Source: Candidatus Micrarchaeia archaeon (GTDB taxonomy: Archaea > Micrarchaeota > Micrarchaeia > Micrarchaeales > Micrarchaeaceae). From it: 64,000 bases of DNA. The stretch covers positions 925 to 64,924 of the forward strand of contig JBMFSF010000001.1 of NCBI GenBank assembly GCA_049967695.1. The letters are read 5' to 3'. The notes below the pieces were generated by a model. The model was not told where the DNA came from and did no database searches. It saw only the letters and a program-made list of their open reading frames with translations. Both the position numbers and the translations under genes were made by a program. Each line of letters opens with the position of its first letter. The first letter of the stretch is position 1. This document shows, piece after piece, positions 28,786 through 61,536 of the stretch.

Positions 28786-28873
28786 CGGGCCCGGCGGGAT
28801 TTTCATGTTCATTTTGAACCCGCGACCATTAGCTTAGAAGGCTACCGCTCTGTCCAAGCTGAGCTACGGGCCC
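28786..28873 (-). tRNA. tRNA-Arg(TCT) with a 13-nt insertion (putative intron) in the T-loop
   Basis: Minus strand reads GGGCCCG TA GCTC AGCTTGGACA GAGC G GTAGC CTTCTAA GCTAA TGGTC GCGGG TTCAAAATGAACATGAAAAT CCCGC CGGGCCC G. The cloverleaf is perfect apart from one 27:43 mismatch and a 20-nt T-loop. Removing 13 nt gives the canonical TTCAAAT. CCA is not encoded. Confidence 0.8.
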
Positions 28874-28907
28874 GTTGCAATTAATTTTATCAAACTAATA
28901 TAAATAC

Positions 28908-29720
28908 CTAATTTAATAAAAAGAACCTCTTGGTATTTTTTGTAAGGATTCTTGCGGTTTCTGTATAATCCATCTCTTTTTCCCTTGCAATTATCTTTAC
29001 TGCTTCTTTCAAATCAGTAAGCTTTTTTGCTGCAGCTGGTGCATCCGTTTCAGCCATTATCATTTCGATATCTACCATTTTTATTATTTCGTTTCTCCTT
29101 TTGGATTCTAAAGGAGGTATTGAAACCATGCAATCAATACTTTTCAAAGCCTTTATGTCTTCCATATTTCCTTCGAAAAAATGAATGTGCGCTTTTTCAA
29201 TTTTTTCCTCATCTATTATCTTTATCACGCTTTTTATCGCATCGCGCGAATGTACAGATACTGGTTTGCCAAGCTCTTTTGCAAGCCTTAACATTTCTCT
29301 GAACGCCTCTTCCTGCTTTGCCATCTGTGCCTGTGTTCTGTTTTTGTAGTCTAAACCTATCTCTCCAATGCTTTTTATCCTGCTTGCATTTTCCCTTATA
29401 AGATCCAGGTTAAATTCAAGCTCGTTCTTTGTCATATTTTCAGCATTATCTGGATCTATGCCTATTGCAGGAAAAACATTGATTCCATCGGATATCTCCA
29501 AGGTTTTGGTATTAGATTTGGTACTGCCTCCATTGCTTATGAAAGTTTTTATCCCTAATTTAATCGCTTCATCTATCTCTGCCCTACTGACCATATCCAA
29601 GTGGCAATGTGCATCTGCAAGCTCCGTAATCTCTATTTCTTTTCTGTTGGATAATATTCTCAGCACTTCTGGCTTGCTGCTGTATTTTTCCTTATGCGTG
29701 CTGACAATTTTCGAAGGCAT
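28908..29720 (-). CDS. tatD: TatD-family metal-dependent hydrolase/DNase
   Basis: DAHCHLD, IGEIGLDY, SVHSRDA, HFFEG and AETDAP motifs. The ATG at 29720 is preferred because the longer ORF-track start would overlap the upstream gene. Confidence 0.85.
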   Translation of the reverse strand: MPSKIVSTHKEKYSSKPEVLRILSNRKEIEITELADAHCHLDMVSRAEIDEAIKLGIKTFISNGGSTKSNTKTLEISDGINVFPAIGIDPDNAENMTKNELEFNLDLIRENASRIKSIGEIGLDYKNRTQAQMAKQEEAFREMLRLAKELGKPVSVHSRDAIKSVIKIIDEEKIEKAHIHFFEGNMEDIKALKSIDCMVSIPPLESKRRNEIIKMVDIEMIMAETDAPAAAKKLTDLKEAVKIIAREKEMDYTETARILTKNTKRFFLLN

Positions 29721-29730
29721 GCTCCCGTGC

Positions 29731-30096
29731 CTAATGAGGATTAGTAAACGGCACCAACTTATTGCTTTTGTATTCCTCAATTATTTGATCAAGATCCTTG
29801 CTTTCCGGTTTCATTATTTTTATGCCTGCATCTTTTAAATAGTTGTATGCCATCTCTCCGATATTTGTAACAACCATAATATCTGGATCTTCCTTTATGA
29901 TCTTGTCTATAACATACTTGCCGTGGCCAGAGTGCTCTTCTTCGTTGCTATACTCATTCTCGATAAATCTTTTCTTTGGCTCAGATTTTTCATATATATC
30001 TATAATTGCAAATTCAGGAGCCTTCCCAAAATGAGGATAAACTACATATTTGTTTGGCTTTTCCAAATATATGACTGGAACTATAATCCTTGTCAT
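29731..30096 (-). CDS. NifB/NifX-like (dinitrogenase FeMo-cofactor-binding domain family) small protein
   Basis: 121 aa. HFGKAPEFAIIDI ... HGKYVIDKII...DIMVVTNIGEMAYNYLKDAGIKI matches the pattern of the PF02579-type family (recognised from memory). Confidence 0.7.
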   Translation of the reverse strand: MTRIIVPVIYLEKPNKYVVYPHFGKAPEFAIIDIYEKSEPKKRFIENEYSNEEEHSGHGKYVIDKIIKEDPDIMVVTNIGEMAYNYLKDAGIKIMKPESKDLDQIIEEYKSNKLVPFTNPH

Positions 30097-30211
30097 TTGA
30101 ATACCTATTTCTAATTCTCTATTTAAAAATTTAATCTTTTCGCTCCTTTTGTGCAGTAAAAAGCCAAAAAAAATATCAACAAATATAAATCTTAAATTAA
30201 AATAGGTATCT

Positions 30212-31360
30212 ATGATAACTATGGACGGAGTAGATTCTACAATACCTATTAAAAAACAAAATCAAAATCTTTCCACTATAATACTTGCCATTACTGTAAT
30301 AATAATGGTGGCACTATTATATGAAATATACGCCGTAAGCAGCTTGTCTTCTCAGGTAAAAGCCCTTAATTCTGAAGTAATAAATGCCAACAAGACTTCA
30401 AGCCTATATATGCGAGCGATATTTAGTCTGCTAGCTAATAAAACTTTGGCTCCTCTGCCAAGCTACAATATAAGCAGCAGCCTTATAACACCCAACATAA
30501 GCCTTGCAGGATTTCCTGTAATAACTCAGAATCAGCCTTTTGGCCATAGGCTTACTAATATCAACCAGCCATTTAATTCATCAGAACTTTCAATAATCAA
30601 CAATGCTCCAGATAGCTATTTCGAGAAGGCAGGGGAGATGCTTCTAAATGGCACTCTTAAAAATCCGGTTGGTTCAATGCCATTGAATGGTACATTGTTT
30701 ATTGTTAATGGTAAGCCTACAGTAATATACTTCGGGTCAATAACCTGCACGTATTGCTCGGAAAATAAATGGTCAATGGCGCTTGCGCTTTCAAGGTTTG
30801 GAAACTTTTCTGAATTGTTTAAGGGATATAGCTCTTTTGGCGATGCAGACCTACCAACATTGTATTTTGCACCATCGCATTATTCAGAATCCGCGGAGGA
30901 TCTTGGAAACTTTTACAATAGCAAGTATATAAACTTTATATCAATAGAAGATACCAATAACATAACAAGTGGTTTTAACCTGAATCCATTGCAGCTCGTA
31001 CAGCAAAGGATAAACGCCACAGGCAATCTTGCATACAAGGATGCGTTTAGCTTGCTTATGGCTTCGAATGACTTTTCTGGAACACCATTTACCTTGTGGG
31101 GTAAATACTTTGTCAATGGTGCAGATGCTGTAGCGTTTGGCAACTCTACTCCAACTAATAGAACCATACCTCTAGAATACATGACACATGCAGATGTACT
31201 CAACCAGATTGCTGCAGGGTCCAGCCAGTTCTCTATGACAGAATATGCAGGTGCGGACTTTTATATCGCTTTGCTTTGTAAATCTATAAACAATACTGCC
31301 CCTGCATGTACGGGCATTCCTGTAATAAGCAAGCTGGAATCAGCAATTAAATTATCATGA
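30212..31360 (+). CDS. DUF929-like membrane-anchored extracellular thioredoxin-fold protein (CxxC)
   Basis: N-terminal TM (LSTIILAITVIIMVALLY). The segment PTVIYFGSITCTYCSENKWSMALALSRFGNFSEL...LPTLYF matches the DUF929 signature as I recall it. Many NxS/T sequons. Confidence 0.6.
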   Translation: MITMDGVDSTIPIKKQNQNLSTIILAITVIIMVALLYEIYAVSSLSSQVKALNSEVINANKTSSLYMRAIFSLLANKTLAPLPSYNISSSLITPNISLAGFPVITQNQPFGHRLTNINQPFNSSELSIINNAPDSYFEKAGEMLLNGTLKNPVGSMPLNGTLFIVNGKPTVIYFGSITCTYCSENKWSMALALSRFGNFSELFKGYSSFGDADLPTLYFAPSHYSESAEDLGNFYNSKYINFISIEDTNNITSGFNLNPLQLVQQRINATGNLAYKDAFSLLMASNDFSGTPFTLWGKYFVNGADAVAFGNSTPTNRTIPLEYMTHADVLNQIAAGSSQFSMTEYAGADFYIALLCKSINNTAPACTGIPVISKLESAIKLS

Positions 31361-31881
31361 ATTTCAAATTTCCCCGGTTGCGATACCGGGCTTACGCTTT
31401 TTATAAAATATTTTCTAAGCCTGCATACATAATAGCATTTATATTATCTTCTATAGCATACTACTATCTATACCATTTTATCGTGTTCTCTTCTTCGAGC
31501 TTTTTTTATATTTCTACACTGCCCTATTACCTGATATATCTTGTTGTGATATCTTCTGCTTTGCTCTTATCGATAAGCGTGTATGCTATAAAGCTACATA
31601 TGAAATCCGGCATTGTAAATACAGCAGCAAGCGGCGTTGTGCCTGTAATAGCAGGAGTGGTATCTGGCTGCGGCTGTGAAATGCCTCTTCTTGCATCAAT
31701 TCTTTATTTTATAGGGCTTGGCACTTTTGCAGTTTCGAATGTAATGCTTTTTGTATCAAAGTACAATTCCATTATTTTGTATTTCCTTGTATTTATTAAT
31801 CTTGCAGTAATATATTATCAATTGGGCAAGATTCCTAACGTGCTGGTACCGAGTTTCAAGCTTGACAGGGTGAATAAATGA
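31357..31881 (+). CDS. polytopic membrane protein with an intramembrane GCGC motif
   Basis: 174 aa, about 4-5 TMs, with VVSGCGCEMPLLASILYF inside a hydrophobic segment. ATGA overlaps with both neighbours indicate translational coupling. Confidence 0.5.
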   Translation: MNFKFPRLRYRAYAFYKIFSKPAYIIAFILSSIAYYYLYHFIVFSSSSFFYISTLPYYLIYLVVISSALLLSISVYAIKLHMKSGIVNTAASGVVPVIAGVVSGCGCEMPLLASILYFIGLGTFAVSNVMLFVSKYNSIILYFLVFINLAVIYYQLGKIPNVLVPSFKLDRVNK

Positions 31882-33020
31882 AGCCCAAAAGCGATTCTGT
31901 TAAGAAGAAGAGTTTAAATAAAACCTCTTACCGCAGAATCAATAAGCCTACAGCTTTCAAAAAAGGCCAGGCTGAAATCGAAGCAGCGGAAATTCCTTCA
32001 GAAGAGGATATCTTTAAGTATTTTGGGAATTATGCTTCTGATTTTGATATGGAAACTGGCGATGCATACTTTGGCACGCTTCTCTCTGGCATACAAAAAT
32101 CAGGTACAGAACTGAATATAATGCCTGAGTCATTGTTACTAATAAATATGCTTTCCAATATAACTAAATCCATAAGGGAGGTAACTTATAAAAAAGGGAT
32201 TTCTATAGGAAGGCTGCTGAGCAGGATCATATCCAACGGTAAAAAATATATGGTTATAGAAGAAGCGCTTCTAGACCTTTCTCTTTTTTTCGAAAAATGC
32301 GGTTACAAAGCGGTAAGCTTTGCCGTACGCCCCTCTCATATCTGGCTTACTTTCCATTATCCTAAGGGGTACGCAGACCTAAAAAACGCTTCCTCTATAC
32401 ATACATTTGAGGCAGGTATTATCTCAGGCTTTTTGACCACCGCAATGCATAATCTTGTAGAAATGCAAGAAGAGGAATGCATTTATACTGGAAGCCCTCA
32501 GTGCGCTTTCGTCTATTCTTTAGACAGATCTGGAAAAAGGCAGGAATCAATTCAAAAACCTGTTGCTATAGAAGACATATCAAAATTCATAGTAGAAAGA
32601 GTAAAGAATAACGAATGCCAACAAACCTCATATTATATGAGCCCTCTTTATTTCAACATATCTGCGCTTTCTTTGTTTGAAGAGAGCTATTTTGAAAGCA
32701 TAAAAGAAATAGTAAAATACCTTGGCAGCAATATTGCATTGCTAATAGGATTTGATAAGGAAGGACTCGCCCAACCCGACAAGCAGCAAAAATTGAAATT
32801 ATTGTTCAAAATGCTCAATTTGGGAAACGTAACAATTAAAAGCATTTCAAAACTAAATATTAAGATAAGCCTTAATCCTCTTTCATCTATCAGGCAGATT
32901 GCTGAGATTTCAGCATCTTTTGCCTTGGGGATTTTCGAAAACTTGGATAAAAGCATTTATGCTTATATAAAACTGCAGGATGACGGGAGCTATGAAATAT
33001 CTATAGCAACCAAAAAATGA
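31878..33020 (+). CDS. V4R-domain-like protein with a basic N-terminal extension
   Basis: HTFEAGIISGFLTTAMHNLVEMQEEECIYTGSPQCAFVYSL resembles the C-terminal V4R (4-vinyl reductase) signature G..aG.l...v.v.E..C...G...C.F. A second, Cys-less, similar half lies at the C-terminus. Confidence 0.45.
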   Translation: MKPKSDSVKKKSLNKTSYRRINKPTAFKKGQAEIEAAEIPSEEDIFKYFGNYASDFDMETGDAYFGTLLSGIQKSGTELNIMPESLLLINMLSNITKSIREVTYKKGISIGRLLSRIISNGKKYMVIEEALLDLSLFFEKCGYKAVSFAVRPSHIWLTFHYPKGYADLKNASSIHTFEAGIISGFLTTAMHNLVEMQEEECIYTGSPQCAFVYSLDRSGKRQESIQKPVAIEDISKFIVERVKNNECQQTSYYMSPLYFNISALSLFEESYFESIKEIVKYLGSNIALLIGFDKEGLAQPDKQQKLKLLFKMLNLGNVTIKSISKLNIKISLNPLSSIRQIAEISASFALGIFENLDKSIYAYIKLQDDGSYEISIATKK

Positions 33021-33033
33021 AAATGGTGCTTTA

Positions 33034-34503
33034 ATGGCATTGGAATTTATGGATTCGATATCGAAGTACATACCATCGATTAAAGGTCCGAAAAGTCCTC
33101 TCTCATTAAGAGAGAAGTTTGTTTGGACAGGCATAGTTCTTTCAATATATTTTGTGCTGTACAATACTTATGCAATAGGTGTCAGCCAACAGGCAGTTTC
33201 ACAGCCTACGCTGCAGCTTATAAGCATAATTTTTGCAGCAAAGATCGGCAGCATAATAACCATAGGAATAGGCCCTATAGTGCTAGCAAGCATTGTCCTG
33301 CAGCTTGTTGTTGGTTCTGGAATAGTGAACATGGATCTTAATGATATGCAACAGAAGGCAAGGTTCCAAAGCCTCCAAAAACTTGCTGCAATAATCATAG
33401 GCGTAATAGAAGCCATCGTATACGTGAATTCAGGTTTTGTTCCGGTAGCTAGTGCCTCTTACGAAGGCATTGTAATATTGCAGCTGAGCCTTGGAGCGAT
33501 ATTCATAGTGTTTCTTGACGAAATAATGACCAAATACGGCATAAGCTCAGGAATAAACCTGTTTATAGCAGCAGGAGTATCATATGCAATTGTTGGTGGA
33601 ACTATAAGCATACTTCTTCCAGAAGCTGCGGCAGCGATATCTGCAGGAGGCGCCAGTGCCCTAGTAAATGCAATAGAAGCATTTGGGCCTCTATTTTTTG
33701 CAATCATAATATTCATTGTAAGCATATATTTCTTCGAGATGCAGGTTGAGCTTCCTCTTGCATTCGAGCAGTTCCGTGGCGTTGGGGGCCGGCTTCCAAT
33801 ACCTTTTCTGTACGTAAACGTTCTTCCAGTGATACTGGCAGAATCATTGACAATGAGCCTTACTTTTTGGTTTAAATTCCTTGCTGGAGTACATGGCAAC
33901 CTTGCAAATCTCGCCAAATTTTTTGCACTATACCAGATAATTCCTAGCTCTACCGGTGCATCAACTTCCGAATTGACTGGTGGCTTGCTGTATCTGATAT
34001 CTCCACAGTTCCCGATGCCTTATAGTTCCACATATGGTGGAGTTGGAGGTTATGGCCCTTACTTTACATATCTTGCGACTCATACCTCGCAGCTGTTCCT
34101 TCCTTGGGGCGGAGTAATTGCAGTCCCAGAATGGATCCATATAATAATTTATACGCTAGTGCTGGTTGTCCTTTGTGTTATATTCGGAAAGTTCTGGATA
34201 GAAATGACAGGGCAGAGTCCAAAGAAAATGGCCGAGCAGCTTGGCGGTATAGGCTGGCAGATACCAGGGTTTAGAAGAGATCCTAGAATTGTGGAAAACG
34301 TGCTTAACAAATATATACCGCAGCTCACAGTCCTTGGCAGCATATTTGTGGGATTGCTTGCAGCTTTGGCAACACTTTCCGGCGCAATAGGTTCAGGAAT
34401 AGGAATACTACTTACAGTGGGAATAGTGTACATGCTTTACCAGCAGCTCAAGCAGGAGCAGCTCTATGAGACATACCCATTCCTGCAAAAGATAGCAAGT
34501 TAG
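33034..34503 (+). CDS. secY: preprotein translocase subunit SecY
   Basis: 489 aa, 10 TMs. The N-terminus PSIKGPKSPLSLREKFVWTGIVLSIYFVL and the later GISSGINLFIAAGV, PKKMAEQLGGIGWQIPGFRRD are typical archaeal SecY/Sec61alpha motifs. Confidence 0.95.
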   Translation: MALEFMDSISKYIPSIKGPKSPLSLREKFVWTGIVLSIYFVLYNTYAIGVSQQAVSQPTLQLISIIFAAKIGSIITIGIGPIVLASIVLQLVVGSGIVNMDLNDMQQKARFQSLQKLAAIIIGVIEAIVYVNSGFVPVASASYEGIVILQLSLGAIFIVFLDEIMTKYGISSGINLFIAAGVSYAIVGGTISILLPEAAAAISAGGASALVNAIEAFGPLFFAIIIFIVSIYFFEMQVELPLAFEQFRGVGGRLPIPFLYVNVLPVILAESLTMSLTFWFKFLAGVHGNLANLAKFFALYQIIPSSTGASTSELTGGLLYLISPQFPMPYSSTYGGVGGYGPYFTYLATHTSQLFLPWGGVIAVPEWIHIIIYTLVLVVLCVIFGKFWIEMTGQSPKKMAEQLGGIGWQIPGFRRDPRIVENVLNKYIPQLTVLGSIFVGLLAALATLSGAIGSGIGILLTVGIVYMLYQQLKQEQLYETYPFLQKIAS

Positions 34504-34753
34504 CTCTTATTTTCTTTTTATTTTGGCTCTTTTTAGAAAATAATTTAATAAAATAAGTAGGTAAGGTTTGCCAGCAATATCCCTTATTCATATAAAAAAT
34601 CTATTTAGTTAACCCCTCAGCTTGCAATTGCTGCACTCTCAGCTTAATACTGCAAAATAAGTCAAGCAAGCGCTTGCCTTTGCCCTTTCCGATTAAAATA
34701 TCAAGCGAATATTTATATTTTATGTCTCACATATATTTAATGTGGTGGAATAT

Positions 34754-35392
34754 ATGGCTAAAACAAATAAAAATAATAAAAATGTTAAAAGCCAGGTTAA
34801 AGCCAAAGCGCCTGCTTCTTCACACAGTACTCAAATTGCGCATTCACATTACCATAAGTATTATATCGCCTTGGCAATTACTGTCATTGTTGCTTTTCTT
34901 ATTGCCTATTTCACATTGTCTCTATTGCACCTTGCCAGTTCCTATTCCTTAATTTCTAATGATTACTCGCATGCAGTATCTGCAATGTCTAATCCTCTTA
35001 TATTAAATCCTCCAATCATATTTTATACCAATACTACACACAATGTTTCTGCACTGCAAATTGGAGTGCCAGCCAATCAGACCTTCTGCCCTGAAAATTC
35101 AACTATTGTAGAAAGGGTAGGCAAGATGCTTTACATACCTTATTATACCAATCTATCTATAAGGGAAAATTTCACATATGCTGAAGTTTTAAACACCTCT
35201 CAAAATCTCAGTATAATTGGCGCATATGTATCAAAGCCTTTTGTATTGAAGAGCTATAAGATAGTAAGCTTGACGTCTGAGAAATGCGCAGGCTATTCTA
35301 ATGCATTGAAAGAAGTAGTATTCAACCTGCAGGGACCCTCGTATAATTATACCGGAAGACTTATAATAATAGCATATGTAACAAACCAATAA
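34754..35392 (+). CDS. membrane-anchored extracellular protein with N-glycosylation sequons
   Basis: K-rich N-terminus, one TM (YYIALAITVIVAFLIAYFTLSLL), then multiple NxS/T sequons. The ATG at 34754 is preferred to the upstream GTG. Confidence 0.45.
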   Translation: MAKTNKNNKNVKSQVKAKAPASSHSTQIAHSHYHKYYIALAITVIVAFLIAYFTLSLLHLASSYSLISNDYSHAVSAMSNPLILNPPIIFYTNTTHNVSALQIGVPANQTFCPENSTIVERVGKMLYIPYYTNLSIRENFTYAEVLNTSQNLSIIGAYVSKPFVLKSYKIVSLTSEKCAGYSNALKEVVFNLQGPSYNYTGRLIIIAYVTNQ

Positions 35393-35525
35393 TGTTTTGT
35401 TTTCTTTTTTTCGAAAATATTAGAAAATTAGCAAAAGCAGTGCGCTTTTCGTATATTGCAATAGAGGGTTAGAAATTCCAAGCACGTATTTAAATCATAA
35501 AAATAGATTAAAAAAGGAAATAAGC

Positions 35526-35542
35526 GCAGGCAAAAAGCCTGC
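35526..35542 (-). terminator. hairpin GCAGGC-AAAAA-GCCTGC followed on the minus strand by a T6 run
   Basis: Perfect 6-bp stem with a 5-nt loop, read directly. On the minus strand it is followed by CCTTTTTT. Lies downstream of the DUF763 gene and a 36-codon mini-ORF. Confidence 0.35.
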
Positions 35543-35821
35543 TTCAAGAAGCAAGCCTTTTCAAAGTTCGCCTACTCTTCTCTTCTGCAATCTTCTCAAG
35601 CGTTTTCTTCTCTTCTTTTTCCATTTCCAGCGCATTCTGTTTTTCTTTTTCCATTTTCTAGGTATGCTTCCCAATGAATCGCCTAATATCTGCTTATAGC
35701 TGATTTGAAATAAAAGTATAATTTTATTTTTTGGCAAAATATTTAAACCTGTAACTTAGCAAGTGATAAAATTCTCAAGGCTACAGTTTCTGAATACTCT
35801 GAAACTTATAATGCCTGTTAA

Positions 35822-36934
35822 TTATGTTGATTTTTTGGTGCTCATGCTGCTGCTTTCCTGCTTGTAGTTTTCCGAGAAACTCATGCTAAGCCTTTTCAAG
35901 GATTTGTACTTCTCAGTGCTTTCAGCATTGGAGTTTTCTATTATCTCTTTCAGGGAAGAGATTATGCTGTCATAGTGTGCCTTATTTATCTTGTATGGTA
36001 TGCCGTCCTTGCCACCAAGGTTATAAGAATAAAATACTGGATCCCTTTTGTATATTTCCTCGTTGTAAAGCAGGGAGGATATGAACGCTATGGATTTCAA
36101 AGTCTTGCCACCAAGCCCTTTTATTTCGAGAAGCTCTTGGTAACTTTCCGGCTGCATATCGTTTGCGTACTTTAGGAGAGCTCTTGCTCTTTCTGATAAG
36201 TCTATACTTTTTATTATTTCATGCCTGCTTGGCATTTCCTTGCTTTGCCTGAAAGATAGAAGCGAGCCCAGATCCTCGTTCACAAGTAGTAGACTCTTTT
36301 CTTTTATTGCCCGGTTCATCTGAAAGGTAAGGTCATAAACGTTTTCCTGTATGCTTGATACAACCCCATTATTAATTTCAGTAGTCAGGTCTGAAGGGTT
36401 TGCTCTGCTTCCGTCCACCTGGAACCTTATCGCTTTTGCGGATTTAAGCTCCATAGCTTGTTGCACTATACACCAGTCTTTGTCTTTAGAAAATACAAAC
36501 GTATGCTGATATATTGATATTCCATCATAAATTATGCTTCCATCCACTTTTGCAATTATCCTACTGTAATCAGAAAACTCTTTTGCCATGCTTCCTATGC
36601 CTATTACATCGGCCCCCCTTTCTATCTCTTCCGGCGTCCTAATCCCTTCTTTGCCCTTGCCTCCTGCGACAACTATGCCCAGGTTGCTTTCATCAAGAGC
36701 TTCTTTGAGCGCTGCCATTGTTACAGTTGTGGTGCCGCTGCTGTGCCAATCATATCCAAGGGCGCAAGCCAGTGCCTGGAACCAATCTGGGTCAGAGATT
36801 TTTTCTATGACCCATTTTGTTCCATACTCGTTTACTGCTATCTCCAATATGCATCTTGCAAGCTTTACCATTCTTGCAAAAAGCCATTTTGGCGCCTTGC
36901 CCCCATGCAGTGGCATCAAAGTAAGACTTTGCAT
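35822..36934 (-). CDS. DUF763 domain protein
   Basis: The N-terminus MPLHGGKAPKWLFARMVKLA...ISDPDWFQALACALGYDWHSSGTTTVTMAALKEAL matches the DUF763 signature as I recall it. Confidence 0.75.
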   Translation of the reverse strand: MQSLTLMPLHGGKAPKWLFARMVKLARCILEIAVNEYGTKWVIEKISDPDWFQALACALGYDWHSSGTTTVTMAALKEALDESNLGIVVAGGKGKEGIRTPEEIERGADVIGIGSMAKEFSDYSRIIAKVDGSIIYDGISIYQHTFVFSKDKDWCIVQQAMELKSAKAIRFQVDGSRANPSDLTTEINNGVVSSIQENVYDLTFQMNRAIKEKSLLLVNEDLGSLLSFRQSKEMPSRHEIIKSIDLSERARALLKYANDMQPESYQELLEIKGLGGKTLKSIAFISSLLYNEEIYKRDPVFYSYNLGGKDGIPYKINKAHYDSIISSLKEIIENSNAESTEKYKSLKRLSMSFSENYKQESSSMSTKKST

Positions 36935-53015: not shown

Positions 53016-53039
53016 TATTAATATGAAAACGGTGTAAAG

Positions 53040-53597
53040 ATGATATTATGCATTACTGGCATGCCAAACAGCGGCAAATCTACTGCAGCATCTATCCTTT
53101 CAAAGAAAGGTTTTAAAATAGTGGAGATGCGCAGCTTTATAGAAAAAGAGATGAAAAAGGAGCATATAAAAGTAGATCCTTTAAGCATAAGGGATTTCTC
53201 TACCAAAATAAGAGAGAGAATGGGGCAGGATGCTGTGGCCCAGCTCGCTATCAAACATATAAAAGCGATGAAAGGCAATATAATAATATCTGGTATAAGG
53301 AGCGTTTACGAGATAAATTATTTCAAATCCAAGATAAAAAACGATTTTTATGTTATTGCAATAACTGCGCCTGCCAGAATAAGATACAAGCGCGCGATAG
53401 CTGTAGAAAAGCCTGATGCCACAAAGACCTATAGCGAATTCATTAAGAGAGACAAGATAGAAAAAAGCTGGGGCCTTGCTGATGCCATAGATAATGCTGA
53501 TTTCATCATCAGCAATACCTCTACTCAAAAGGCGTTGGAATCCAGCCTAAGCAAGGTGCTTGACATAATAAATTCCACCCATGCAAATGCAAAGTAG
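53040..53597 (+). CDS. P-loop nucleotide kinase-like protein (UPF0200/dephospho-CoA-kinase-like fold)
   Basis: MILCITGMPNSGKST Walker A at the extreme N-terminus, 185 aa, and GIRSVYEINYF. The pattern resembles the archaeal UPF0200 family (from memory). Confidence 0.6.
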   Translation: MILCITGMPNSGKSTAASILSKKGFKIVEMRSFIEKEMKKEHIKVDPLSIRDFSTKIRERMGQDAVAQLAIKHIKAMKGNIIISGIRSVYEINYFKSKIKNDFYVIAITAPARIRYKRAIAVEKPDATKTYSEFIKRDKIEKSWGLADAIDNADFIISNTSTQKALESSLSKVLDIINSTHANAK

Positions 53598-53712
53598 AAT
53601 GCAAAAAATAAGCATAAAAGTAAGTCCTTTACTTAAAAGATTTGAGCAAACATGTCAATATTTAAAACAAATAGATAAAAATATTAAATATCAATTATTA
53701 AGCGGTAATAAA

Positions 53713-54525
53713 ATGAGAGCCATAACTGCGATATTTTTGTTTTTCGCATTTGCAATTGGTACTTCTACTGCTGCTTATGTTAATCTTGTGAATCCGTTAA
53801 ATGCCACTCTTTATACAAACCAGACTATATATATTGGTGAGGTTGCACCAGGCCAGTCGTTTTCTGTTGGTATCTTATCTAATACTACAAATTCCACAGG
53901 TTCGATGATCTTGTACGGGTGGAACAAGCTTGTAGCATTGGATTTGCCACCGAACTGGACTGCTTCTAGCACATCTTTTAATACGAGATATTTGCAAGTC
54001 CTTATAAAACCTTCTTCAAATTCAGAAATTGGAAAATACAGGCTTAAATTCGAGGCCATAAATGTAGGCAACTATACTCATTTGGGTGTTCTGCCTTTTT
54101 ATGCTACAATATCAATAAATCCTAGCGTCTTTTCAATTTCTGCTTATCCATCAAAGATAATCTCAACTCCTGGAGTGCCAGCAAATGTTACAATAGCAAT
54201 AAACAATAGCGGCGTATCAGACTGCCCTTTTATAATATCTTCTGCAGGGCTAATAAATTTTAACAATACAGAATCCATAATAGCTGTGCACCACCGCACG
54301 GTTCACGCTAACTACCCTGTAAGAGAGGGACAGGCAGGCTCATACAATTTCAGGCTTATGATAAATTCCACCCAAAGCTCTCTTGTAAATAAGACATTGA
54401 ATATAACTTTTATAGTCAAGCCTACAATGGGCTCGGAGTTTGCGTCTACAGGCCAGGGTATAGCTATTTTTCCAATTACCTATGCCCCAATATATGCAAT
54501 AGAGTACCTTTTGAGCAAGATATAA
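53713..54525 (+). CDS. secreted/anchored protein with repeated beta-sandwich-like (CARDB/adhesin-like) segments
   Basis: Sec-type signal peptide MRAITAIFLFFAFAIGTSTAAYV, many sequons, and a hydrophobic C-terminus (GIAIFPITYAPIYAIEYLL). The ATG at 53713 is preferred because the longer ORF-track start overlaps the kinase gene. Confidence 0.5.
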   Translation: MRAITAIFLFFAFAIGTSTAAYVNLVNPLNATLYTNQTIYIGEVAPGQSFSVGILSNTTNSTGSMILYGWNKLVALDLPPNWTASSTSFNTRYLQVLIKPSSNSEIGKYRLKFEAINVGNYTHLGVLPFYATISINPSVFSISAYPSKIISTPGVPANVTIAINNSGVSDCPFIISSAGLINFNNTESIIAVHHRTVHANYPVREGQAGSYNFRLMINSTQSSLVNKTLNITFIVKPTMGSEFASTGQGIAIFPITYAPIYAIEYLLSKI

Positions 54526-54670
54526 AAAGTGCAGATGCACTCTCAATGCATAAGCATAACACTATATAAATTTTTAGAATAAATGTATGAGCAATATTTT
54601 GTTGGGTTGAATTATTTTAGCTGTTGCAATTGCCTGATTTATAGAATATGAGTAATAGCAATAATGCCAA

Positions 54671-54742
54671 GCCCGAATAGCTCAGTGGTAGAGCGACTGG
54701 CTGTTAACCAGTAGGTCGCAGGTTCAATCCCTGCTTCGGGCG
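54671..54742 (+). tRNA. tRNA-Asn(GTT)
   Basis: GCCCGAA TA GCTC AGTGGTA GAGC G ACTGG CTGTTAA CCAGT AGGTC GCAGG TTCAATC CCTGC TTCGGGC G. Perfect cloverleaf, 72 nt, no insertion, followed by a T-run. Confidence 0.95.
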
Positions 54743-54750
54743 CTTTTTTA

Positions 54751-56994
54751 TTATTGTGGTGCAGTAGCTTCATCATTCTGTTTTTTTCTCTGCTTGGTGT
54801 CGGATCCATTTATTGGAAGTATGAAAAAGAATTTGCTTCCTTTTCCAAGCTCTGATTCTACTCCTATCTTGCCTTTATGAAGCAGAATTATCTTTTTAGC
54901 TATCGAAAGTCCGAGCCCAGTGCCAGATTTTGGAGGCGAGGTAAGGTCTTTTCTTGTGGTAGCTTGGTAGAACTCCCTAAACAGCTTCTTCTTGTCCTCT
55001 GGGCTTATTCCAACGCCTGTATCTATTACATCGCATTCTATGTACTTTTTCGTTTTCCTGAATGTATGTACAGTTATCCCTCCCTTATCTGTGAATTTGA
55101 TTGCGTTGCTTATCAAGTTTACAAGAACTTGTATTATCCTGTTCTGGTCTGCCATAATCTTAGGGACATTGTAATCTACTGTCCATTTGAAGAAAAGCCC
55201 TTTTGCTATAGCGTTTCCTTTTATTGCCTTAATGCTTGAAGTATCCTCAAGCTCCCTGAAGTCTATTTCGTTTATTTCAAGCTTTATCTTGTTAGCATCA
55301 AGTTTGGAAGCGTCTAGTACCTGCTGTATTATAAGCATCAGCCTGTTTGACTCGTCTATTATTGTTTTGATATATCCTTTTTGTTCATCGTTTAGCTCTC
55401 CAAACTCGCCGTTAATCAGAAATTTTGCATAACCTATTATGCTAGTGAGCGGGGATTTTAATTCGTGGGATATATTGTATATGAACTGCGACTTTAGATC
55501 GCTTATGCTTCTCAATCTGTTGCTTATGTTTGTCTGCCTTTTAAGCTCCAGTTCCATATCGTTAAGCCTGCGCTTTGTCTCCAATTCCTTTATCAAAAAC
55601 ATGTAATATGTTTGCGAGTTTACTTTTTCTATCTCTCTTATCGAGTAGATTGCAGAAAGCTTTGATTGGTCCTTTTTTATAAGGACTACGTAGCTGTTGT
55701 CTATCTTGTTGCCATTTTTAATATAGCCGAAATCCCTGTCCAATATATTAATATCTTCATAAATAGTCTTTATCTCTTTTCCAATAAGCTCGTCCTTAGG
55801 ATAGCCAAGTATATTTTCAACGGACATATTGCAGTATTTGATAAATCCAAGCTCGTCTACTATAAATATCGGATCAGAAGAGACATTTGCAAGGTCATAA
55901 AAATTGTTTACCAGCTTGCTCGTATTTACTGCCATGTCATTATTCTTCAATAACAGCAATATCTTCCCATAGCCTCTGCTCGCATATATATGCAGGTATC
56001 TTTTCTTGCCATTGGCGTTAATATAATACTCTCCTATGTCTTTTGTCCCATTTTCATAATCCAGGCTCTGGCTGAATTTCTGTCCTATACTTTCTTCCAT
56101 TAAATTTTCCAGTTTTCCTTCAGCAAGAAATTCGCTAGGTTGCCCAAGCACTTTGTCTACATTCGCGCTTGCGTATTCTATTTTGTGCGTTTTTTCATTT
56201 AGTATGAGGAGGCTTTCATCGCTTTCGGATTCAAACAGCGACAAAAGCCCATTTTTAAGTTTCGAATCTGTTGCTTTGTTAAAGAACAATATCTCAAGGT
56301 TCTCATTTATGTCATTGGCAGATATGTAGTATATGTTGTTTCCAATTGCTTTCTCCAAGCCGGACTTGAGAGCAGATTGTATCTCCTCTGCTTGCACATT
56401 TATCTCAGATATGCTTGCCCCTTCTTTAAGCACCTCAAACTCCCTTAATGTTGCTTCGTTTGTTTTCACAACTGTGCCGTTCTTGTTGGCAAGTATTGTA
56501 GGAATTCCGGAATCGAAAGCCGCAGAGAAATAGCTTGCCAATCTTGCACTCTTTTCGGTTTCTATCTTGTAGACTATAACATAGCCTGCGAAATACGAGG
56601 CTATCAAAGCCAGATTTACAATCTGGGTATTGAATTTGCTTTCGTATTTTGAAAGCATTTCGAATATTGCAACCACTCTTCCATTTGCTATAATAGGAAT
56701 TCCAACATAGCTCTTGTACCCTGAATTGAACGCTTCTATAAGCTCTGAAAATGTGGAGTAGCTGCTCAGCTGGTTATCTATATACGGCGTTTTTGTGTTT
56801 GTTATATATTCGTAAAGCTTGCTTTCTCCTTTTTCGTTTATGCTTACTATATCTGCTTTCTCAACCCCAAACACGTTGAGGGCAGTTTCCTTGAACTTCA
56901 ATATGAAATCGTCCTTGCTCATGCTGCTGTTTGCTAACGGGATTATATCATCAAACAGCTTGCCGATGAGAAGGTTGATTTCGGTCATGAGCAT
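54751..56994 (-). CDS. soluble sensor histidine kinase (GAF + multiple PAS-like domains + HisKA + HATPase_c)
   Basis: H-box ISHELKSPLTSIIGYAKFL, N-box LVNLISNAIKFT, G1 VIDTGVGI, G2 SGTGLGLSIAKKIILLHKG. A roughly 480-aa N-terminal sensory region has no TM segments. Confidence 0.9.
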   Translation of the reverse strand: MLMTEINLLIGKLFDDIIPLANSSMSKDDFILKFKETALNVFGVEKADIVSINEKGESKLYEYITNTKTPYIDNQLSSYSTFSELIEAFNSGYKSYVGIPIIANGRVVAIFEMLSKYESKFNTQIVNLALIASYFAGYVIVYKIETEKSARLASYFSAAFDSGIPTILANKNGTVVKTNEATLREFEVLKEGASISEINVQAEEIQSALKSGLEKAIGNNIYYISANDINENLEILFFNKATDSKLKNGLLSLFESESDESLLILNEKTHKIEYASANVDKVLGQPSEFLAEGKLENLMEESIGQKFSQSLDYENGTKDIGEYYINANGKKRYLHIYASRGYGKILLLLKNNDMAVNTSKLVNNFYDLANVSSDPIFIVDELGFIKYCNMSVENILGYPKDELIGKEIKTIYEDINILDRDFGYIKNGNKIDNSYVVLIKKDQSKLSAIYSIREIEKVNSQTYYMFLIKELETKRRLNDMELELKRQTNISNRLRSISDLKSQFIYNISHELKSPLTSIIGYAKFLINGEFGELNDEQKGYIKTIIDESNRLMLIIQQVLDASKLDANKIKLEINEIDFRELEDTSSIKAIKGNAIAKGLFFKWTVDYNVPKIMADQNRIIQVLVNLISNAIKFTDKGGITVHTFRKTKKYIECDVIDTGVGISPEDKKKLFREFYQATTRKDLTSPPKSGTGLGLSIAKKIILLHKGKIGVESELGKGSKFFFILPINGSDTKQRKKQNDEATAPQ

Positions 56995-57500
56995 CTTGCC
57001 ACTTACTTCATTTTTCTTTTATCTATTTATTCTTTCTTGTGCTTATAATACCACAACAAATTCCGAAAGCATCTGTGCATTTTTGCATTGCGTTTTTGCA
57101 TTTTATAAGATGTTTTAATATTTTTGAATATGGCATTTCCTCTTGCTCCTTTGGCTATGTTTAATAACGAATCCTCTTTAGCATGTAAAGCTCGCTTTCA
57201 TAGGGCGTATGCTGATGATAACTATAACTAATATATAATAATATGCTTTATATATTACTAGAAAAGGAATAGGCATATATAAGGAATCATTGCCCATTTT
57301 GCAGCTTACAAAATCAAATATAAAAGAAAATTGCTTGAAGAAAACTGTTCAAAAAATGGAGCTGTGCTTTAGCAAGAAAGCAAGCCCTAAACATAAACTA
57401 AAAATCTTTGATGCTTTGTCCAACATGCAATAAAGCATAATGCTGCTTGCAAGAGGGTAATGCTACAAGAATCATTAACATATAGTAGAAGGTTGCTTTG

Positions 57501-58160
57501 ATGGAGTTTGAAAAGATTTTTGAAGGCGTATATAAGATAGGAGGCAAGCTCGCCACCAAAAATCTTGTTCCTGGTTCTAAGGTGTATGGGGAAGAGCTTG
57601 TGGAATATGGTGGCGTAGAGTACCGTTTGTGGAATCCTTATAGAAGCAAGCTTTCTGCAGCCATAATAAACAACATGAAAAGTTTTAATATAAAAGAAAA
57701 CGACAGAGTTTTATATCTTGGTGGTGCAACTGGCACAACTTCTAGCCACATAAGCGATATAATTGGCTTGGGGGGGGCACTTTTTGCTGTAGAAATCTCT
57801 GAAAGAAACATGCGCCAGCTTATAGAAGTGTGCTCTATGAGAAAAAACATGGTCCCCCTGCTGGCAGATGCAAGAGACATAAGCACATATGCTTCTATAG
57901 TAAGGAAGTGTGATATATTATACCAAGATGTTTCATCGAAAGAACAAGCTTCTATACTGAATGCAAACTCAGCGCTTCTAAAACAGGGCGGCTACGCCTA
58001 TTTTGCAATAAAATCGCAGAGCATTGATGTGTCAAAGAATCCAGAAACCATCTTCCATGAGACCCTGTCCGAAGTATCGGAAAAATTCAAAATAATAGAA
58101 AAAATAAAAATAGAGCCGTTCGATAAAATGCATTTATTTGTAGTGCTTCAAAAGAGGTAA
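57501..58160 (+). CDS. flpA: fibrillarin (rRNA/tRNA 2'-O-methyltransferase)
   Basis: YRLWNPYRSKLSAAI, VLYLGGATGTTSSHISDI and DARDIS...DILYQDV are hallmark fibrillarin motifs. Confidence 0.95.
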   Translation: MEFEKIFEGVYKIGGKLATKNLVPGSKVYGEELVEYGGVEYRLWNPYRSKLSAAIINNMKSFNIKENDRVLYLGGATGTTSSHISDIIGLGGALFAVEISERNMRQLIEVCSMRKNMVPLLADARDISTYASIVRKCDILYQDVSSKEQASILNANSALLKQGGYAYFAIKSQSIDVSKNPETIFHETLSEVSEKFKIIEKIKIEPFDKMHLFVVLQKR

Positions 58161-58164
58161 TAGA

Positions 58165-58962
58165 TTGAATATTAAAGAGTATAATAATCTTTTTGGAAAG
58201 CTGGTCTCTGCTAATAACAAAGAGGCCCAGTGTCCCTACTGCGGTGCAGAAAATCATGCTTCTTCAGATATAACAATATGCTTCAATTGCGAGCTTCCAT
58301 TTAGCATATCAGAGCCTGCAAAATACCTTATACCTTTTGGCAGTAGCGAGGCAGAAGTAATGGCTGCTTATGAAAAGCTTTTGGAAGACTCAAAAGATCC
58401 GCTATTAGCATATGCCTATGGCGTTTACCTGCTCAATATTTCAAACAAGATAAAGGAAGGCATATCATACGAAAAAAAGGGTTTTATGGAAGACAACTCG
58501 GATATAGAAAATAGCTCTAAGCTGGCTTATGCAAAGGCTAGGCTATTTTTCAGCAAAGCTGCCTACCTTTCCGAATCCTATATAAAAGCCGGAGAAGCCA
58601 GCCCGCAACACATATACGCTATGCTCGTTTCATACCTCAAGCTTGGCAACATGCGTGCAGCAGCCTACGCTTACGAAAAGCTCAAGGGAATGAGCAACGC
58701 CCCCATGCTTGTTGATTATTCCTCTATGCTGATGTCTTCTGCAAATAAGAATGCCAAAGAGCTGGCTAAAAATTCAACGAGCGTTTTAAACAAATTCTTA
58801 ATTTTCAATTCTTTTTATTATCTGGCTTATGCAAGATATATAAGCAAAGACACAAAAACCGCAGAGCATCTGCTTGAAATGCTTTTGAGCATATATAAGG
58901 ATAACGCAACATTGCAGTCTTTGAAGAATGACATACACCTGCTAGAGCTTAGCTGGAAATAA
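58165..58962 (+). CDS. hypothetical protein: N-terminal zinc ribbon plus a helical (TPR-like) body
   Basis: CPYCGAEN...CFNCELPF, followed by about 200 aa of amphipathic helices rich in A/Y/L. TTG start 4 nt after the flpA stop. Confidence 0.45.
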   Translation: MNIKEYNNLFGKLVSANNKEAQCPYCGAENHASSDITICFNCELPFSISEPAKYLIPFGSSEAEVMAAYEKLLEDSKDPLLAYAYGVYLLNISNKIKEGISYEKKGFMEDNSDIENSSKLAYAKARLFFSKAAYLSESYIKAGEASPQHIYAMLVSYLKLGNMRAAAYAYEKLKGMSNAPMLVDYSSMLMSSANKNAKELAKNSTSVLNKFLIFNSFYYLAYARYISKDTKTAEHLLEMLLSIYKDNATLQSLKNDIHLLELSWK

Positions 58963-60664
58963 AGATAAGCTCATTTTTTTCTTTTTGGTGCATGATGCAA
59001 AAGCCAAATCTTTCAAACTGAATTATCTCATTTTCTTTAATTTCTTTCAGGTAAGGTTCTGCATAACCTTCCAGTATTTCTAGGCTGTTCTTGTCAAACT
59101 TGCCCTCTTTGATAGGATTTTTAGGCACCAGTACTTTGCATTTCAAAAAATCCTCAGGCAGCCACTGTACGGCCTTTATTTTTTCATCCGCGCTTTCGAG
59201 CATCCTAGCCTCATATGCCTCTCCATTTTTTTCTATTTCTATGTAGCACAGGTCTTTCAGCTTTAACTTATTGCTTTTTTCAATATCCTCCTTGCTTATG
59301 TAAATATACTGGTTCAGCTTGTAAGATCTGTATCCTAAATCGTTGGTTGGATGCAACGGAATCTTCACCTCTCTGTCCATACCGTTTATATGACATTTTA
59401 CGGGCTCCTTTACAAAAAATAGCCTTTTGCTTGTTGGGTCTATATACTTCTTGTTTTCCGCCATAAGCATAGAAATATCGACCTTGCTCTCTGTTTTGCT
59501 CATCCCAAATTTCAGAACGAAATCCCTTATGGCTTCTGGCAATATTCCTCTGTTCCTTAATGCAGCTATTGTAACAAGCCTTGGATCATCGTATCCTTCA
59601 AGCAGGCCTTCTTTTATCAGCTGGTTTATCTCTCTTTTATGAGTTATATTATCTTTTATTACAAGCCTTGAATCGCTGTGCATCCTGGGTTTCCTAAGGC
59701 CTGCTGCATCCAACACCTTATAATAGAGCTCGTCTCTTAATTCGTACTCCTTGCTTCTTATTGGGTCGGTTATGCCATGTATGGAATCATTGACCGGCGT
59801 ATTGAGGTCGTAAGTGGGCCACACTATGTACTTGGTCCCCTGCCTGTAATGCCTACTCTTTTTTACCCTCATCAATGTAGGATCCCTCATAACCGTGTTT
59901 GGTGATTGCATATCTCCTTTAAATCTTAAAACCGCCTCTCCCTCATTAAACTTGCCTGAAAGCATGCCTTCAAATTCCTTGAGATTTTCTTCTATTGTCT
60001 GTGTTCTATGCTCGCATTCTTTGCCTGCAAGCCTCATTTCTTTCATCTTTTCCCTGCTGCATTTGCATACATAAGCATTTCCTGTTTTTATCAGCTTCCT
60101 TGCCACTTCGTATATAAATTCTATGTTATCGCTAGCGTAATATTCTCCGTCAAATTTTACTCCAAGCCATTCGCAGTCTCTTTTAATCATATCTACATAT
60201 TTTTCAGAATCCTTTTCCGGATTTGTATCATCAAAATATAGGAAGATCTTCCCGTTGTAAATCTTTGCAAACTCGTTTGCCAAATTCAGCGTTTTCGCAT
60301 GACCTATATGCATGAACCCGTTGGGTGCAGGAGCGAACCTGGTGGCAAAGTTGCCATATTCTGCCCCTTCCAATACCATTCTTGGCTTAGAAGTTTCGTC
60401 AACCTTTTTCTTGTACTCCTCTTCGAAAAGAGGCTTGTATTTTGCATATGCGCTTTCCAAATCCTCTTTGGCCATGGAGTTAACTTCTTCAACAACCTCT
60501 TTTATGCTTTTAGATAGCCAAGTCATCTCATTTTTGGATTCCGGAAACTTCGAAAGAATCTTCCCAAGCACCGAATCATATCTGGCCTTTCCATACTCAT
60601 ATGCGTTTTTAATAGTATAAATTCGTATGCTTTCCAATACCTCTTTCATGATTTTTTCTTCCAT
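58949..60664 (-). CDS. gltX: glutamyl-tRNA synthetase, archaeal/eukaryal type
   Basis: RFAPAPNGFMHIGHAKT (HIGH), FDDTNPEK, VWPTYDLNTPVNDSIHGITDPIRSKEY and the KMSKS-like FGMSKT. 571 aa. Confidence 0.9.
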   Translation of the reverse strand: MEEKIMKEVLESIRIYTIKNAYEYGKARYDSVLGKILSKFPESKNEMTWLSKSIKEVVEEVNSMAKEDLESAYAKYKPLFEEEYKKKVDETSKPRMVLEGAEYGNFATRFAPAPNGFMHIGHAKTLNLANEFAKIYNGKIFLYFDDTNPEKDSEKYVDMIKRDCEWLGVKFDGEYYASDNIEFIYEVARKLIKTGNAYVCKCSREKMKEMRLAGKECEHRTQTIEENLKEFEGMLSGKFNEGEAVLRFKGDMQSPNTVMRDPTLMRVKKSRHYRQGTKYIVWPTYDLNTPVNDSIHGITDPIRSKEYELRDELYYKVLDAAGLRKPRMHSDSRLVIKDNITHKREINQLIKEGLLEGYDDPRLVTIAALRNRGILPEAIRDFVLKFGMSKTESKVDISMLMAENKKYIDPTSKRLFFVKEPVKCHINGMDREVKIPLHPTNDLGYRSYKLNQYIYISKEDIEKSNKLKLKDLCYIEIEKNGEAYEARMLESADEKIKAVQWLPEDFLKCKVLVPKNPIKEGKFDKNSLEILEGYAEPYLKEIKENEIIQFERFGFCIMHQKEKNELIFISS

Positions 60665-60674
60665 TATACCATCG

Positions 60675-61289
60675 CTACTTTGTGATCTGGTTTACGCTAC
60701 TGTTCAATTGTGATACATATATCTGGTTGTTTACTACGCTTCCGTTTTTACTTATCATAGCCGCAAACCACACTTCTACTTTGCTTCCTACTGGCATTAT
60801 ATTCATTGATATAGATGTAACATTATTTTTTATAAAAATAGGATAAATATTGCCGTATACACTTGCGTTTATTATATCTGGCAGGCTTATTGTAAGATTG
60901 CCTATCATGCTTGCGTTTTTATCTATGCCTTGCGCAAGAGCTTCTACAGATTCTATATTGCTGCTATTGCGGGTATATACTTTTATCGTGTTATTGCTTA
61001 TGTTTTCTATTTTGTAATTGGAGGAATTCAGCTTTTCTTCAATCTTTTTTATAGATAATGTATTTGCGCTTATTGTTATGCTGTTGCCATACCCTACAAC
61101 TGTGGCATTTACAATTGCTACTGCTCTGTAGCTTGACTGCGGTATGGTGGTTGTTGTAGATGATGGCGGGGAGCCGCTTCCTCCAACCATATAAGAAGAT
61201 ATAAACATCAAGAAAACAAAAATTGCTCCCAAAAAGTACAGCAACTTTTTCTTTTTGTCATCCATAATATTTCCTTTTATTTTATGCAA
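60675..61289 (-). CDS. membrane-anchored extracellular protein with N-glycosylation sequons
   Basis: The N-terminal TM is LLYFLGAIFVFLMFISSYMV. Sequons include NATV, NSSN, NISN, NSSN, NASM, NLTI, NASV, NVTS, NGSV and NSSV. Confidence 0.45.
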   Translation of the reverse strand: MHKIKGNIMDDKKKKLLYFLGAIFVFLMFISSYMVGGSGSPPSSTTTTIPQSSYRAVAIVNATVVGYGNSITISANTLSIKKIEEKLNSSNYKIENISNNTIKVYTRNSSNIESVEALAQGIDKNASMIGNLTISLPDIINASVYGNIYPIFIKNNVTSISMNIMPVGSKVEVWFAAMISKNGSVVNNQIYVSQLNSSVNQITK

Positions 61290-61424
61290 TACAAAGTATA
61301 TTTGCTTTTTGCTTTATTAAATTTTTGTATTTTTACATCAAATCTGACCTATATACCTTTTATGTAAACCTTTCCTATTAGAAAAATATATAAGGTATAA
61401 GAAAAAATATATGTTGCATAAAAC

Positions 61425-61536
61425 GCCAGGGTGGCGGAATCTGGTAACGCGTACGCCCGGAAAAAAATTCTCGTAAGCGTATGGCTTCTCGAAGCCTTTT
61501 GGGTTCAAAAGAAATCTGAAAATCCCAACCCTGGCG
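61425..61536 (+). tRNA. class II (long variable arm) tRNA, most likely tRNA-Ser(GGA), with two 13-nt insertions (anticodon loop 37/38 and T-loop 59/60)
   Basis: GCCAGGG TG GCG GAATCTGGTAA CGC G TACGC [CCGGAAAAAAATTCTCGTAA] GCGTA T-GGCTT-CTCG-AAGCC-TT TTGGG [TTCAAAAGAAATCTGAAAAT] CCCAA CCCTGGC G. The acceptor, anticodon and T stems are perfect. The 3-bp D stem, long variable hairpin and G73 fit Ser. Both loops are 20 nt instead of 7. Confidence 0.7.

Follow-up and report, generated by a model that had tools for sequence, protein, structure and literature searches.

Introduction

The closest described relative of the introns treated here is found in Candidatus Micrarchaeum acidiphilum ARMAN-2, whose splicing endonuclease EndA cuts a 13-nucleotide (nt) hBH intron at position 59/60 of pre-tRNA-Cys in vitro (Fujishima et al. 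2011, PMC3239211), and the intron of this pre-tRNA-Cys(GCA) was reused as a BHL substrate in later structural work (Hirata et al. 2012, PMC3488258; PMC12397907). The ARMAN-2 enzyme is a three-unit epsilon2 EndA (PDB 4FZ2), and a 13-nt hBH intron at 59/60 is already the published type case for Micrarchaeota. At the canonical archaeal site 37/38, the bulge-helix-bulge element (BHB) has the 3-4-3 hBHBh' form (Marck and Grosjean 2003, as cited in PMC4090602), and in Thermoproteales transposed tRNA introns have been described (Fujishima et al. 2010, Mol Biol Evol 27:2233, as cited in PMC4090602 and PMC3239211). Here, we analyze a stretch of 64,000 nt (called the window below) belonging to a metagenome-assembled genome (MAG) of Micrarchaeota of 893 kb in 65 contigs, in which the genes of tRNA-Arg(UCU) and tRNA-Ser(GGA) carry three insertions of 13 nt, one in each T-loop and one in the Ser anticodon loop. 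Very probably, all three are minimal archaeal tRNA introns of the BHB class, in its relaxed hBH/BHL form, and owe their shared shape to the substrate rule of the endonuclease.

Three interruptions in two tRNA genes

The three interrupted loops measure 20 nt each, and subtracting 13 nt leaves in every case a 7-nt loop, with the sequence TTCAAAT in the two T-loops and CCGGAAA, containing the anticodon GGA, in the anticodon loop. When both 13-nt pieces are deleted from the Ser(GGA) gene, one from the anticodon loop and one from the T-loop, a clean Ser cloverleaf is obtained. An original prediction, made from the letters of the window, had placed the three insertions at these sites, with equal length, and had parsed them as TTCA-AAA-TGAACA-TGAA-AAT (Arg T-loop), TTCA-AAA-GAAATC-TGAA-AAT (Ser T-loop) and CCGG-AAA-AAAATT-CTCG-TAA (Ser anticodon loop), and our sequence check found all of this to be correct as strings. 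It had also named tRNA-Asn(GUU) as free of insertions, in agreement with ARAGORN and Rfam, which show an uninterrupted gene.

The 4-3-6-4-3 geometry that had been proposed for the three loops stands for the two T-loops, where the TTCA/TGAA helix has 4/4 Watson-Crick pairs and where, in the case of Arg, the minimum-energy fold of the T arm is the T-stem plus the 4-base-pair (bp) helix plus the 3-nt bulge. In the Ser anticodon loop, it is nominal only, with 3/4 pairs (one C-C mismatch and one G-U among the four positions) and an alternative fold. Furthermore, the 6-nt stretch of this geometry is itself closed by a pair, T-A in the Arg core TGAACA and G-C in the Ser core GAAATC. Given that the T arm and the anticodon arm both consist of a 5-bp stem and a 7-nt loop, an intron placed after the sixth loop base, either at 59/60 or at 37/38, offers the enzyme the same shape. 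The coordinates of these and all other features are collected in Table 1.

Table 1. Location of the features discussed; plain coordinates are positions in the window, and G000 is the genome to which the window belongs.
Feature	Location	Strand	Size	Remarks
tRNA-Arg(UCU) gene	28786..28873	-	88 nt	Rfam RF00005, 55.9 bits, with a 14-nt T-loop gap; not detected by ARAGORN
Arg(UCU) T-loop intron	28800..28812	-	13 nt	59/60; ATGAACATGAAAA; helix TTCA (28815-28818) with TGAA (28802-28805); 3' bulge AAT 28799-28801
tRNA-Asn(GUU) gene	54671..54743	+		no intron; comparison gene
tRNA-Ser(GGA) gene	61425..61536	+	112 nt	class II, long variable arm, G73; two introns; missed by ARAGORN and by Rfam alike
Ser(GGA) anticodon-loop intron	61463..61475	+	13 nt	canonical 37/38; AAAAATTCTCGTA; helix CCGG (61457-61460) with CTCG (61470-61473); 3' bulge TAA 61474-61476
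C at tRNA position 33 of Ser(GGA)	61458	+		T in all 27 orthologues; U33 nearly universal
Ser(GGA) T-loop intron	61510..61522	+	13 nt	59/60; AGAAATCTGAAAA; helix TTCA (61504-61507) with TGAA (61517-61520); 3' bulge AAT 61521-61523
snR66-like Rfam match	61570-61676	+		C/D-box snoRNA family; 30.9 bits against a cut-off of 65, E 0.019
Epsilon2 EndA	G000:C8		384 aa	three-unit; sole tRNA-intron endonuclease gene of the genome
RtcB ligase	G000:C5:37637-38941			PF01139, E 1.2e-169
59/60 introns of the genome				Arg-TCT 13 nt; Ser-GGA 13 nt; Ala-GGC 13 nt; Cys-GCA 15 nt; Arg-CCT 19 nt; Arg-TCG 30 nt
58/59 intron, Leu-CAA	G000:C47:2245-2341	-	12 nt	outside the window
37/38 introns of the genome			12-62 nt	nine; Ala-CGC 12 nt with a 4-3-5-4-3 shape
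D-loop introns of the genome				three
29/30 intron of the genome				one
tRNA-Val(TAC), first gene	G000:C11:16444-16514			uninterrupted
tRNA-Val(TAC), second gene	G000:C5:9477-9564			17-nt insert at about 29/30
tRNA-Ile(UAU), Pro(UGG) and Pro(CGG) genes	G000:C28:9922-9996; G000:C19:45-117; G000:C8:21314-21386			very weak D-stem in both Pro genes
Ser(GGA) orthologue L048	G012:C11:61535-61644			10-nt anticodon-loop intron
Arg-TCG/Gly-CCC intron pair of G105	L129 G105:C2:165890-166110; L130 G105:C2:316010-316240			

Splicing enzymes and proposed excision

The only tRNA-intron endonuclease gene of the genome encodes a protein that aligns end to end with the ARMAN-2 enzyme of PDB 4FZ2 (E 1.5e-134) and has its nearest public homologues in Micrarchaeota MAGs. 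In this alignment, the catalytic Tyr, His and Lys (equivalents of Y236, H251 and K282) are kept, and so are the equivalents of R275, of W384 and of the specificity-loop lysine K161, the functional roles of which in ARMAN-2 EndA are described in PMC3488258. Of the 201 genomes sampled from the phylum, 198 contain a full-length epsilon2 EndA, and the present one also encodes RtcB, the RNA ligase that connects 2',3'-cyclic phosphate with 5'-OH ends. Judging from these residues and the end-to-end alignment, the genome is predicted to encode an endonuclease of the type that can cleave relaxed motifs outside the canonical position.

From the above, we infer that the insertions are excised in this organism. 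Within the pre-tRNA, pairing would take place between four intron bases and the four bases that open the loop, namely UUCA in a T-loop and positions 32-35 in the anticodon loop, and the resulting 4-bp helix would stack on the 5-bp stem of the arm, with a 3-nt bulge on the 3' side and, on the 5' side, another 3-nt bulge followed by a 6-nt mini-hairpin made of one closing pair and four bases. The homodimeric three-unit epsilon2 endonuclease would then cut two bases into each bulge, and RtcB would join the exons, thus restoring the 7-nt loops. Both T-loop introns are very probably old, vertically inherited features of these tRNA genes in Micrarchaeia, and their lengths in this genome have come down close to the lower end of the range.

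The codon usage of the genome points in the same direction. AGA makes up 38% of the Arg codons, and Arg(UCU) together with Arg(CCU), both of them with T-loop introns, serve 84% of the Arg codons, while UCU and UCC, served by Ser(GGA), amount to 34% of the Ser codons. A single Arg(UCU) gene was found, and no second gene copy for the anticodons of Arg(UCU) or Ser(GGA) appeared in our genome census, which is incomplete. As sole genes for codons in use, these genes must yield working tRNAs, and this requires the removal of the inserts.

The introns in related genomes

We searched 61 genomes of the family and order with a pattern for T-loop introns (GTTCAAA-N7-40-TGAAAATC) and obtained 121 matches in 52 of them, 115 of these outside the present genome, versus 4 with the reversed control; the host genes include Arg-TCT, Arg-CCT, Arg-TCG, Ala-GGC, Pro-GGG, Ser-CGA and Lys-TTT. 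At the level of the phylum, the T-loop intron pattern was present in 138 of the 201 sampled genomes.

Full-length matches to tRNA-Ser(GGA) occur in most of 60 relatives, and both introns lie at the same sites in every one of the 27 orthologues parsed, with 10-15 nt in the anticodon loop and 13-22 nt (mode 16) in the T-loop. The T-loop helix has its 4/4 pairs in all 28 Ser(GGA) genes, this genome included, and the length and sequence of the core vary; these cores begin and end as GC..GC in 24/27 orthologues, the copy of this genome having a single G-C pair around AAAT. The anticodon helix has the same mismatch at position 33 in 24/28 genes. In tRNA-Arg(TCT), a 59/60 intron of 13-41 nt is present in 25 of the 26 parsed orthologues and missing in the remaining one, and the exons are 85-97% identical, with cores that are unrelated save for a closure that is mostly T..A. 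In summary, the orthologues of both genes combine a conserved site, a variable intron interior and maintained pairing. The shortest intron that we observed in any gene, with the parse CTGG-AAA-AAT-CTTG-AAA, lies in the anticodon loop of one Ser(GGA) orthologue (L048 in Table 1).

tRNA genes and introns of the host genome

To list the tRNA genes, we combined Rfam and ARAGORN with acceptor-stem/T-arm scans and the matches of the T-loop intron pattern. The intron mode of ARAGORN handles canonical-site introns only and mislabelled several genes; the loose scan for an acceptor stem plus a T arm gave 901 candidates, mostly false, and a stricter scan led to a usable list. The resulting census has 40 tRNA genes, 19 of them interrupted (48%), with 20 introns of 12-62 nt whose positions are strongly non-random, 16/20 being located at 37/38, 59/60 or 58/59. 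A survey of this kind had been proposed along with the original prediction, and it shows that the insertions of the window are by no means the only such cases, many more having been found.

T-loop introns are present in seven genes, six at 59/60 and one at 58/59. Among the former, the Ala-GGC gene (C34) is cut by the contig end, the 30-nt intron of Arg-TCG forms a full hBHBh' motif with an 8-bp outer helix, and in Cys-GCA a T-loop TTCG faces an intron strand CGAA, a compensatory change that keeps the helix. In the latter, Leu-CAA, the helix is formed by G53-C56 against GAAT (GAAC in most orthologues) in a slipped T-stem register, and the 58/59 intron measures 11-16 nt in 22 orthologues. One further pattern match (G000:C11:14631-14678) lacks a T-stem and was dismissed as chance. 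Searches with ARAGORN and with Rfam at its gathering threshold miss Ser-GGA, Arg-CCT, Cys-GCA, Leu-TAA and Ala-GGC, and report Arg-TCG truncated.

Several side observations were made during this survey. There are two tRNA-Val(TAC) genes, of which the uninterrupted one differs from the remaining Val tRNAs of this genome and may be foreign or contamination, and the other, with its insert, resembles the Val family. A tRNA-Ile(UAU) gene is present, together with the Pro(UGG) and Pro(CGG) genes with very weak D-stems, both features being known from ARMAN genomes (PMC3239211). Just downstream of tRNA-Ser, a weak snR66-like Rfam match was obtained, which is probably due to chance in A/T-rich sequence and which we treated as noise along with microRNA-family matches in the vicinity.

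Length of the introns

Among the 115 matches in relatives, the most frequent length at 59/60 is 13 nt (14 cases), and the same pattern with a shorter spacer yielded one 12-nt case and none shorter, to which a relaxed class-wide pattern added two more of 12 nt. In all 17 of the 13-nt introns at 59/60 (3 of this genome and 14 of relatives), the first and last bases of the 6-nt core can pair, where chance would give 0.375 for each. The real minimal shape would thus be 4-3-(1+4+1)-4-3, that is, the helix and the bulges with one closing pair and four bases, as read from these 17 sequences.

A single endonuclease imposing a minimal substrate was one of the two origins that had been put forward for the insertions, and it is supported by the presence of epsilon2 EndA and RtcB, by the accumulation of 59/60 introns at 13 nt and by the published in vitro substrate, with the restriction that 13 nt is not universal, given the 10-15 nt of the Ser(GGA) orthologues at 37/38 and the minimum of 11 nt of Leu(CAA) at 58/59. 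The common length of 13 nt is in part due to a floor effect at 59/60 and in part coincidental. A stronger version, in which the enzyme sets 13 nt as a fixed minimum for all sites, a true "quantum", would also account for the 13-nt mode in relatives, the scarcity of 12-nt cases and the closing pair around four bases, but we consider it rather unlikely because shorter introns exist in the clade, with 10-12 nt in 37/38 introns of Ser(GGA) orthologues, 11-12 nt in 58/59 introns of Leu(CAA) and 12 nt in the 37/38 intron of Ala(CGC) in this same genome. Moreover, none of the 27 Ser(GGA) orthologues has the 13/13 combination, seen only in this genome, and part of the triple coincidence is a matter of luck, the range being narrow.

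Origin and possible mobility of the T-loop introns

The other proposed origin was a spread of short introns by transposition or gene conversion, with the Arg and Ser T-loop introns as sequence-related copies. The two introns are identical at 9/13 positions and differ at four, rather than at the five first counted, with TGAACA and GAAATC matching at core positions 3 and 4. However, 7/9 of the shared bases are the TGAA strand, forced by the exon TTCA, and three A's of the bulges, and the free 6-nt core matches at 2/6, the level that A/T-rich composition gives by chance. The two introns look alike because of the conserved exon UUCAAAU, to which the intron strand UGAA has to be complementary, and because of the many A's in the bulges; since the identity outside the core is exon, exon-complementary strand or A-rich bulge, a sequence relationship was not shown.

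That these two introns are copies of each other, or of a common mobile intron that moved recently, is thus very improbable, in spite of their same site and length, their nine identical bases and the sharing of introns between different tRNA genes in relatives (G105, G012, G041, G026 and G115). Each of the two resembles its own orthologue in G040 more closely, with 11/13 for the Arg intron and 10/13 for the Ser intron; each keeps the closing pair of its lineage, G..C in 26/28 Ser(GGA) genes and T..A in most Arg(TCT) genes; and the T-stems differ (GCGGG versus TTGGG). Both introns are near-universal in the order and, because of this, neither arrived recently. A recent transfer from one of these genes to the other is, on these comparisons, not supported, and an intron of 13 nt is in any case too short to carry a transfer signal. 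Similarity beyond the positions forced by the splice motif, the mark of a transposed intron, was found in relatives only and not in the Arg/Ser pair, so that the idea of a spread is not supported for this pair and does describe a process seen elsewhere in the clade.

In G105, the introns of Arg-TCG and Gly-CCC are identical at 40/43 positions, with 5' exons matching at 31/54 and differing T-stems, which looks as if an intron had passed from one tRNA gene to another, unrelated one. The introns of Ala-GGC and Arg-TCG in G012 share 26/30 positions, those of Gly-TCC and Gly-CCC in G115 are identical over 43 nt with a layout similar to that of G105, and those of Arg-CCT and Arg-TCT in G026 are identical, as is all the sequence from the variable loop through the 3' end. 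In G041, Ser-GGA and Ser-CGA have identical 19-nt introns (L044, L006), and G040, of the same genus (g33), has identical Ser(GGA) exons with a different 13-nt T-loop intron (L038); here, the Ser(GGA) T-loop intron of G041 looks as if replaced by that of its own Ser(CGA) through gene conversion over a tract that does not extend beyond the T arm. Going by these alignments, intron sharing between different tRNA genes does occur in Micrarchaeia.

We tentatively suggest, as a possibility for which the odds are somewhat against, that the T-loop introns of Micrarchaeia are a slowly mobile population, copied from one tRNA gene to another even across differing T-stems, with G105 as an example, and eroding by deletion down to a site-specific floor, which at 59/60 would be 13 nt with one closing pair around four bases. 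If this were true, the 59/60 floor would define the smallest substrate accepted by epsilon2 endonucleases, and the three 13-nt introns of this genome would be end-points of erosion. In the literature searched, we found no report of an intron-mobility survey or of a length floor for Micrarchaeota.

Weighing the excision of the inserts

Several observations weigh against reading the insertions as spliced introns. The minimum-energy fold of the Ser anticodon loop takes another register, unlike the textbook motif, and C33 favours this alternative pre-tRNA hairpin (-6.3 versus -4.6 kcal/mol); likewise, the minimum-energy fold of the Ser T arm lacks the TTCA/TGAA helix. A runs flank the junctions of all three introns, so that the boundaries slide and base-exact splice sites are not defined. 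In the mature Ser(GGA), the anticodon loop would have an abnormal C33, and this could mean either that this gene copy is impaired or that the base was miscalled; that is, C33 could be a real substitution or an error of the MAG consensus. Public sequencing runs were queried for sequence of this genome, with which both excision and the base called at C33 could have been examined, and none of them gave a match. Finally, every census method, two extra scans included, failed to show about six of the expected tRNAs (His, Ala-UGC, Thr-GGU, Lys-CUU, Pro-GGG and Ser-CGA), which leaves the census incomplete; their genes are in assembly gaps or too disrupted for the scans used.

A different removal from the Ser anticodon loop, that of the 5'-proximal 13 nt, would leave CUCGUAA, with a Thr anticodon on a Ser body, and it was rejected because all orthologues read CTGGA and a separate Thr(CGU) gene exists.

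An enlarged T-loop of 20 nt is incompatible with the tertiary core formed by the T-loop and the D-loop. That the insertions are never removed, the genes being pseudogenes or their tRNAs working with 20-nt loops, is extremely unlikely. In its favor are the failure of standard tRNA finders, which reject or miss these genes, and the odd C33, whereas against it stand their status as the only genes found for heavily used codons, exons conserved across the order around an insert that is free except for the helix strand and the bulges (the signature of a spliced intron and not of decay), a matching endonuclease encoded in the same genome, in vitro cutting of the same kind of insert in ARMAN-2 Cys and the destruction of that tertiary core.

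Implications

Taking the three insertions as minimal spliced introns, automatic annotation of Micrarchaeota genomes would wrongly report absent decoders for more than 80% of the Arg codons. The introns described here add natural substrates to the single tested BHL substrate of the epsilon2 endonuclease, and their orthologues provide a graded length series, of 13-41 nt at 59/60 and of 10-15 nt at 37/38. Two modest by-products are the 13-nt mode with its obligatory closing pair and the sharing of introns between tRNA genes in relatives. The established picture of co-evolution between tRNA genes and splicing endonuclease remains unchanged.

Comparison with known systems

Compared with the transposed introns of Thermoproteales, as these are cited in the papers named above, the likeness is in the relatives, where near-identical introns occur in non-orthologous tRNA genes (G105, G012 and G041). 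In contrast, the pair of the window has no similarity beyond the forced positions, the enzyme is epsilon2 and not (alpha-beta)2, and the phylum is another one.

With the canonical 37/38 BHB motif, as cited in PMC4090602, the introns of the window share the 4-bp helix formed from loop positions 1-4, the 3-nt bulges and, as proposed, cuts two bases into each of them, the Ser anticodon-loop intron being located at this very site; they differ in that, of the outer helix h', at most one pair is left and in that the Ser helix is mismatched at position 33. The ARMAN genomes, for their part, have in common with the present one more than one intron per gene, a high interrupted fraction (19/40 here) and tRNA-Ile(UAU), whereas Ser(GGA) here combines 37/38 with 59/60 instead of two T-loop sites, and Pro(GGG) was not found in this assembly.

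The closest system is still the pre-tRNA-Cys(GCA) of ARMAN-2. Its difference is in the host genes, which here are Arg-UCU, Ser-GGA and Ala-GGC, the in vitro cleavage being known for the ARMAN-2 Cys analogue only. Its likeness is in the phylum, the epsilon2 enzyme, the 59/60 site, the length of 13 nt and the motif class, and this genome also has the orthologous 59/60 intron in its own Cys(GCA), with 15 nt.

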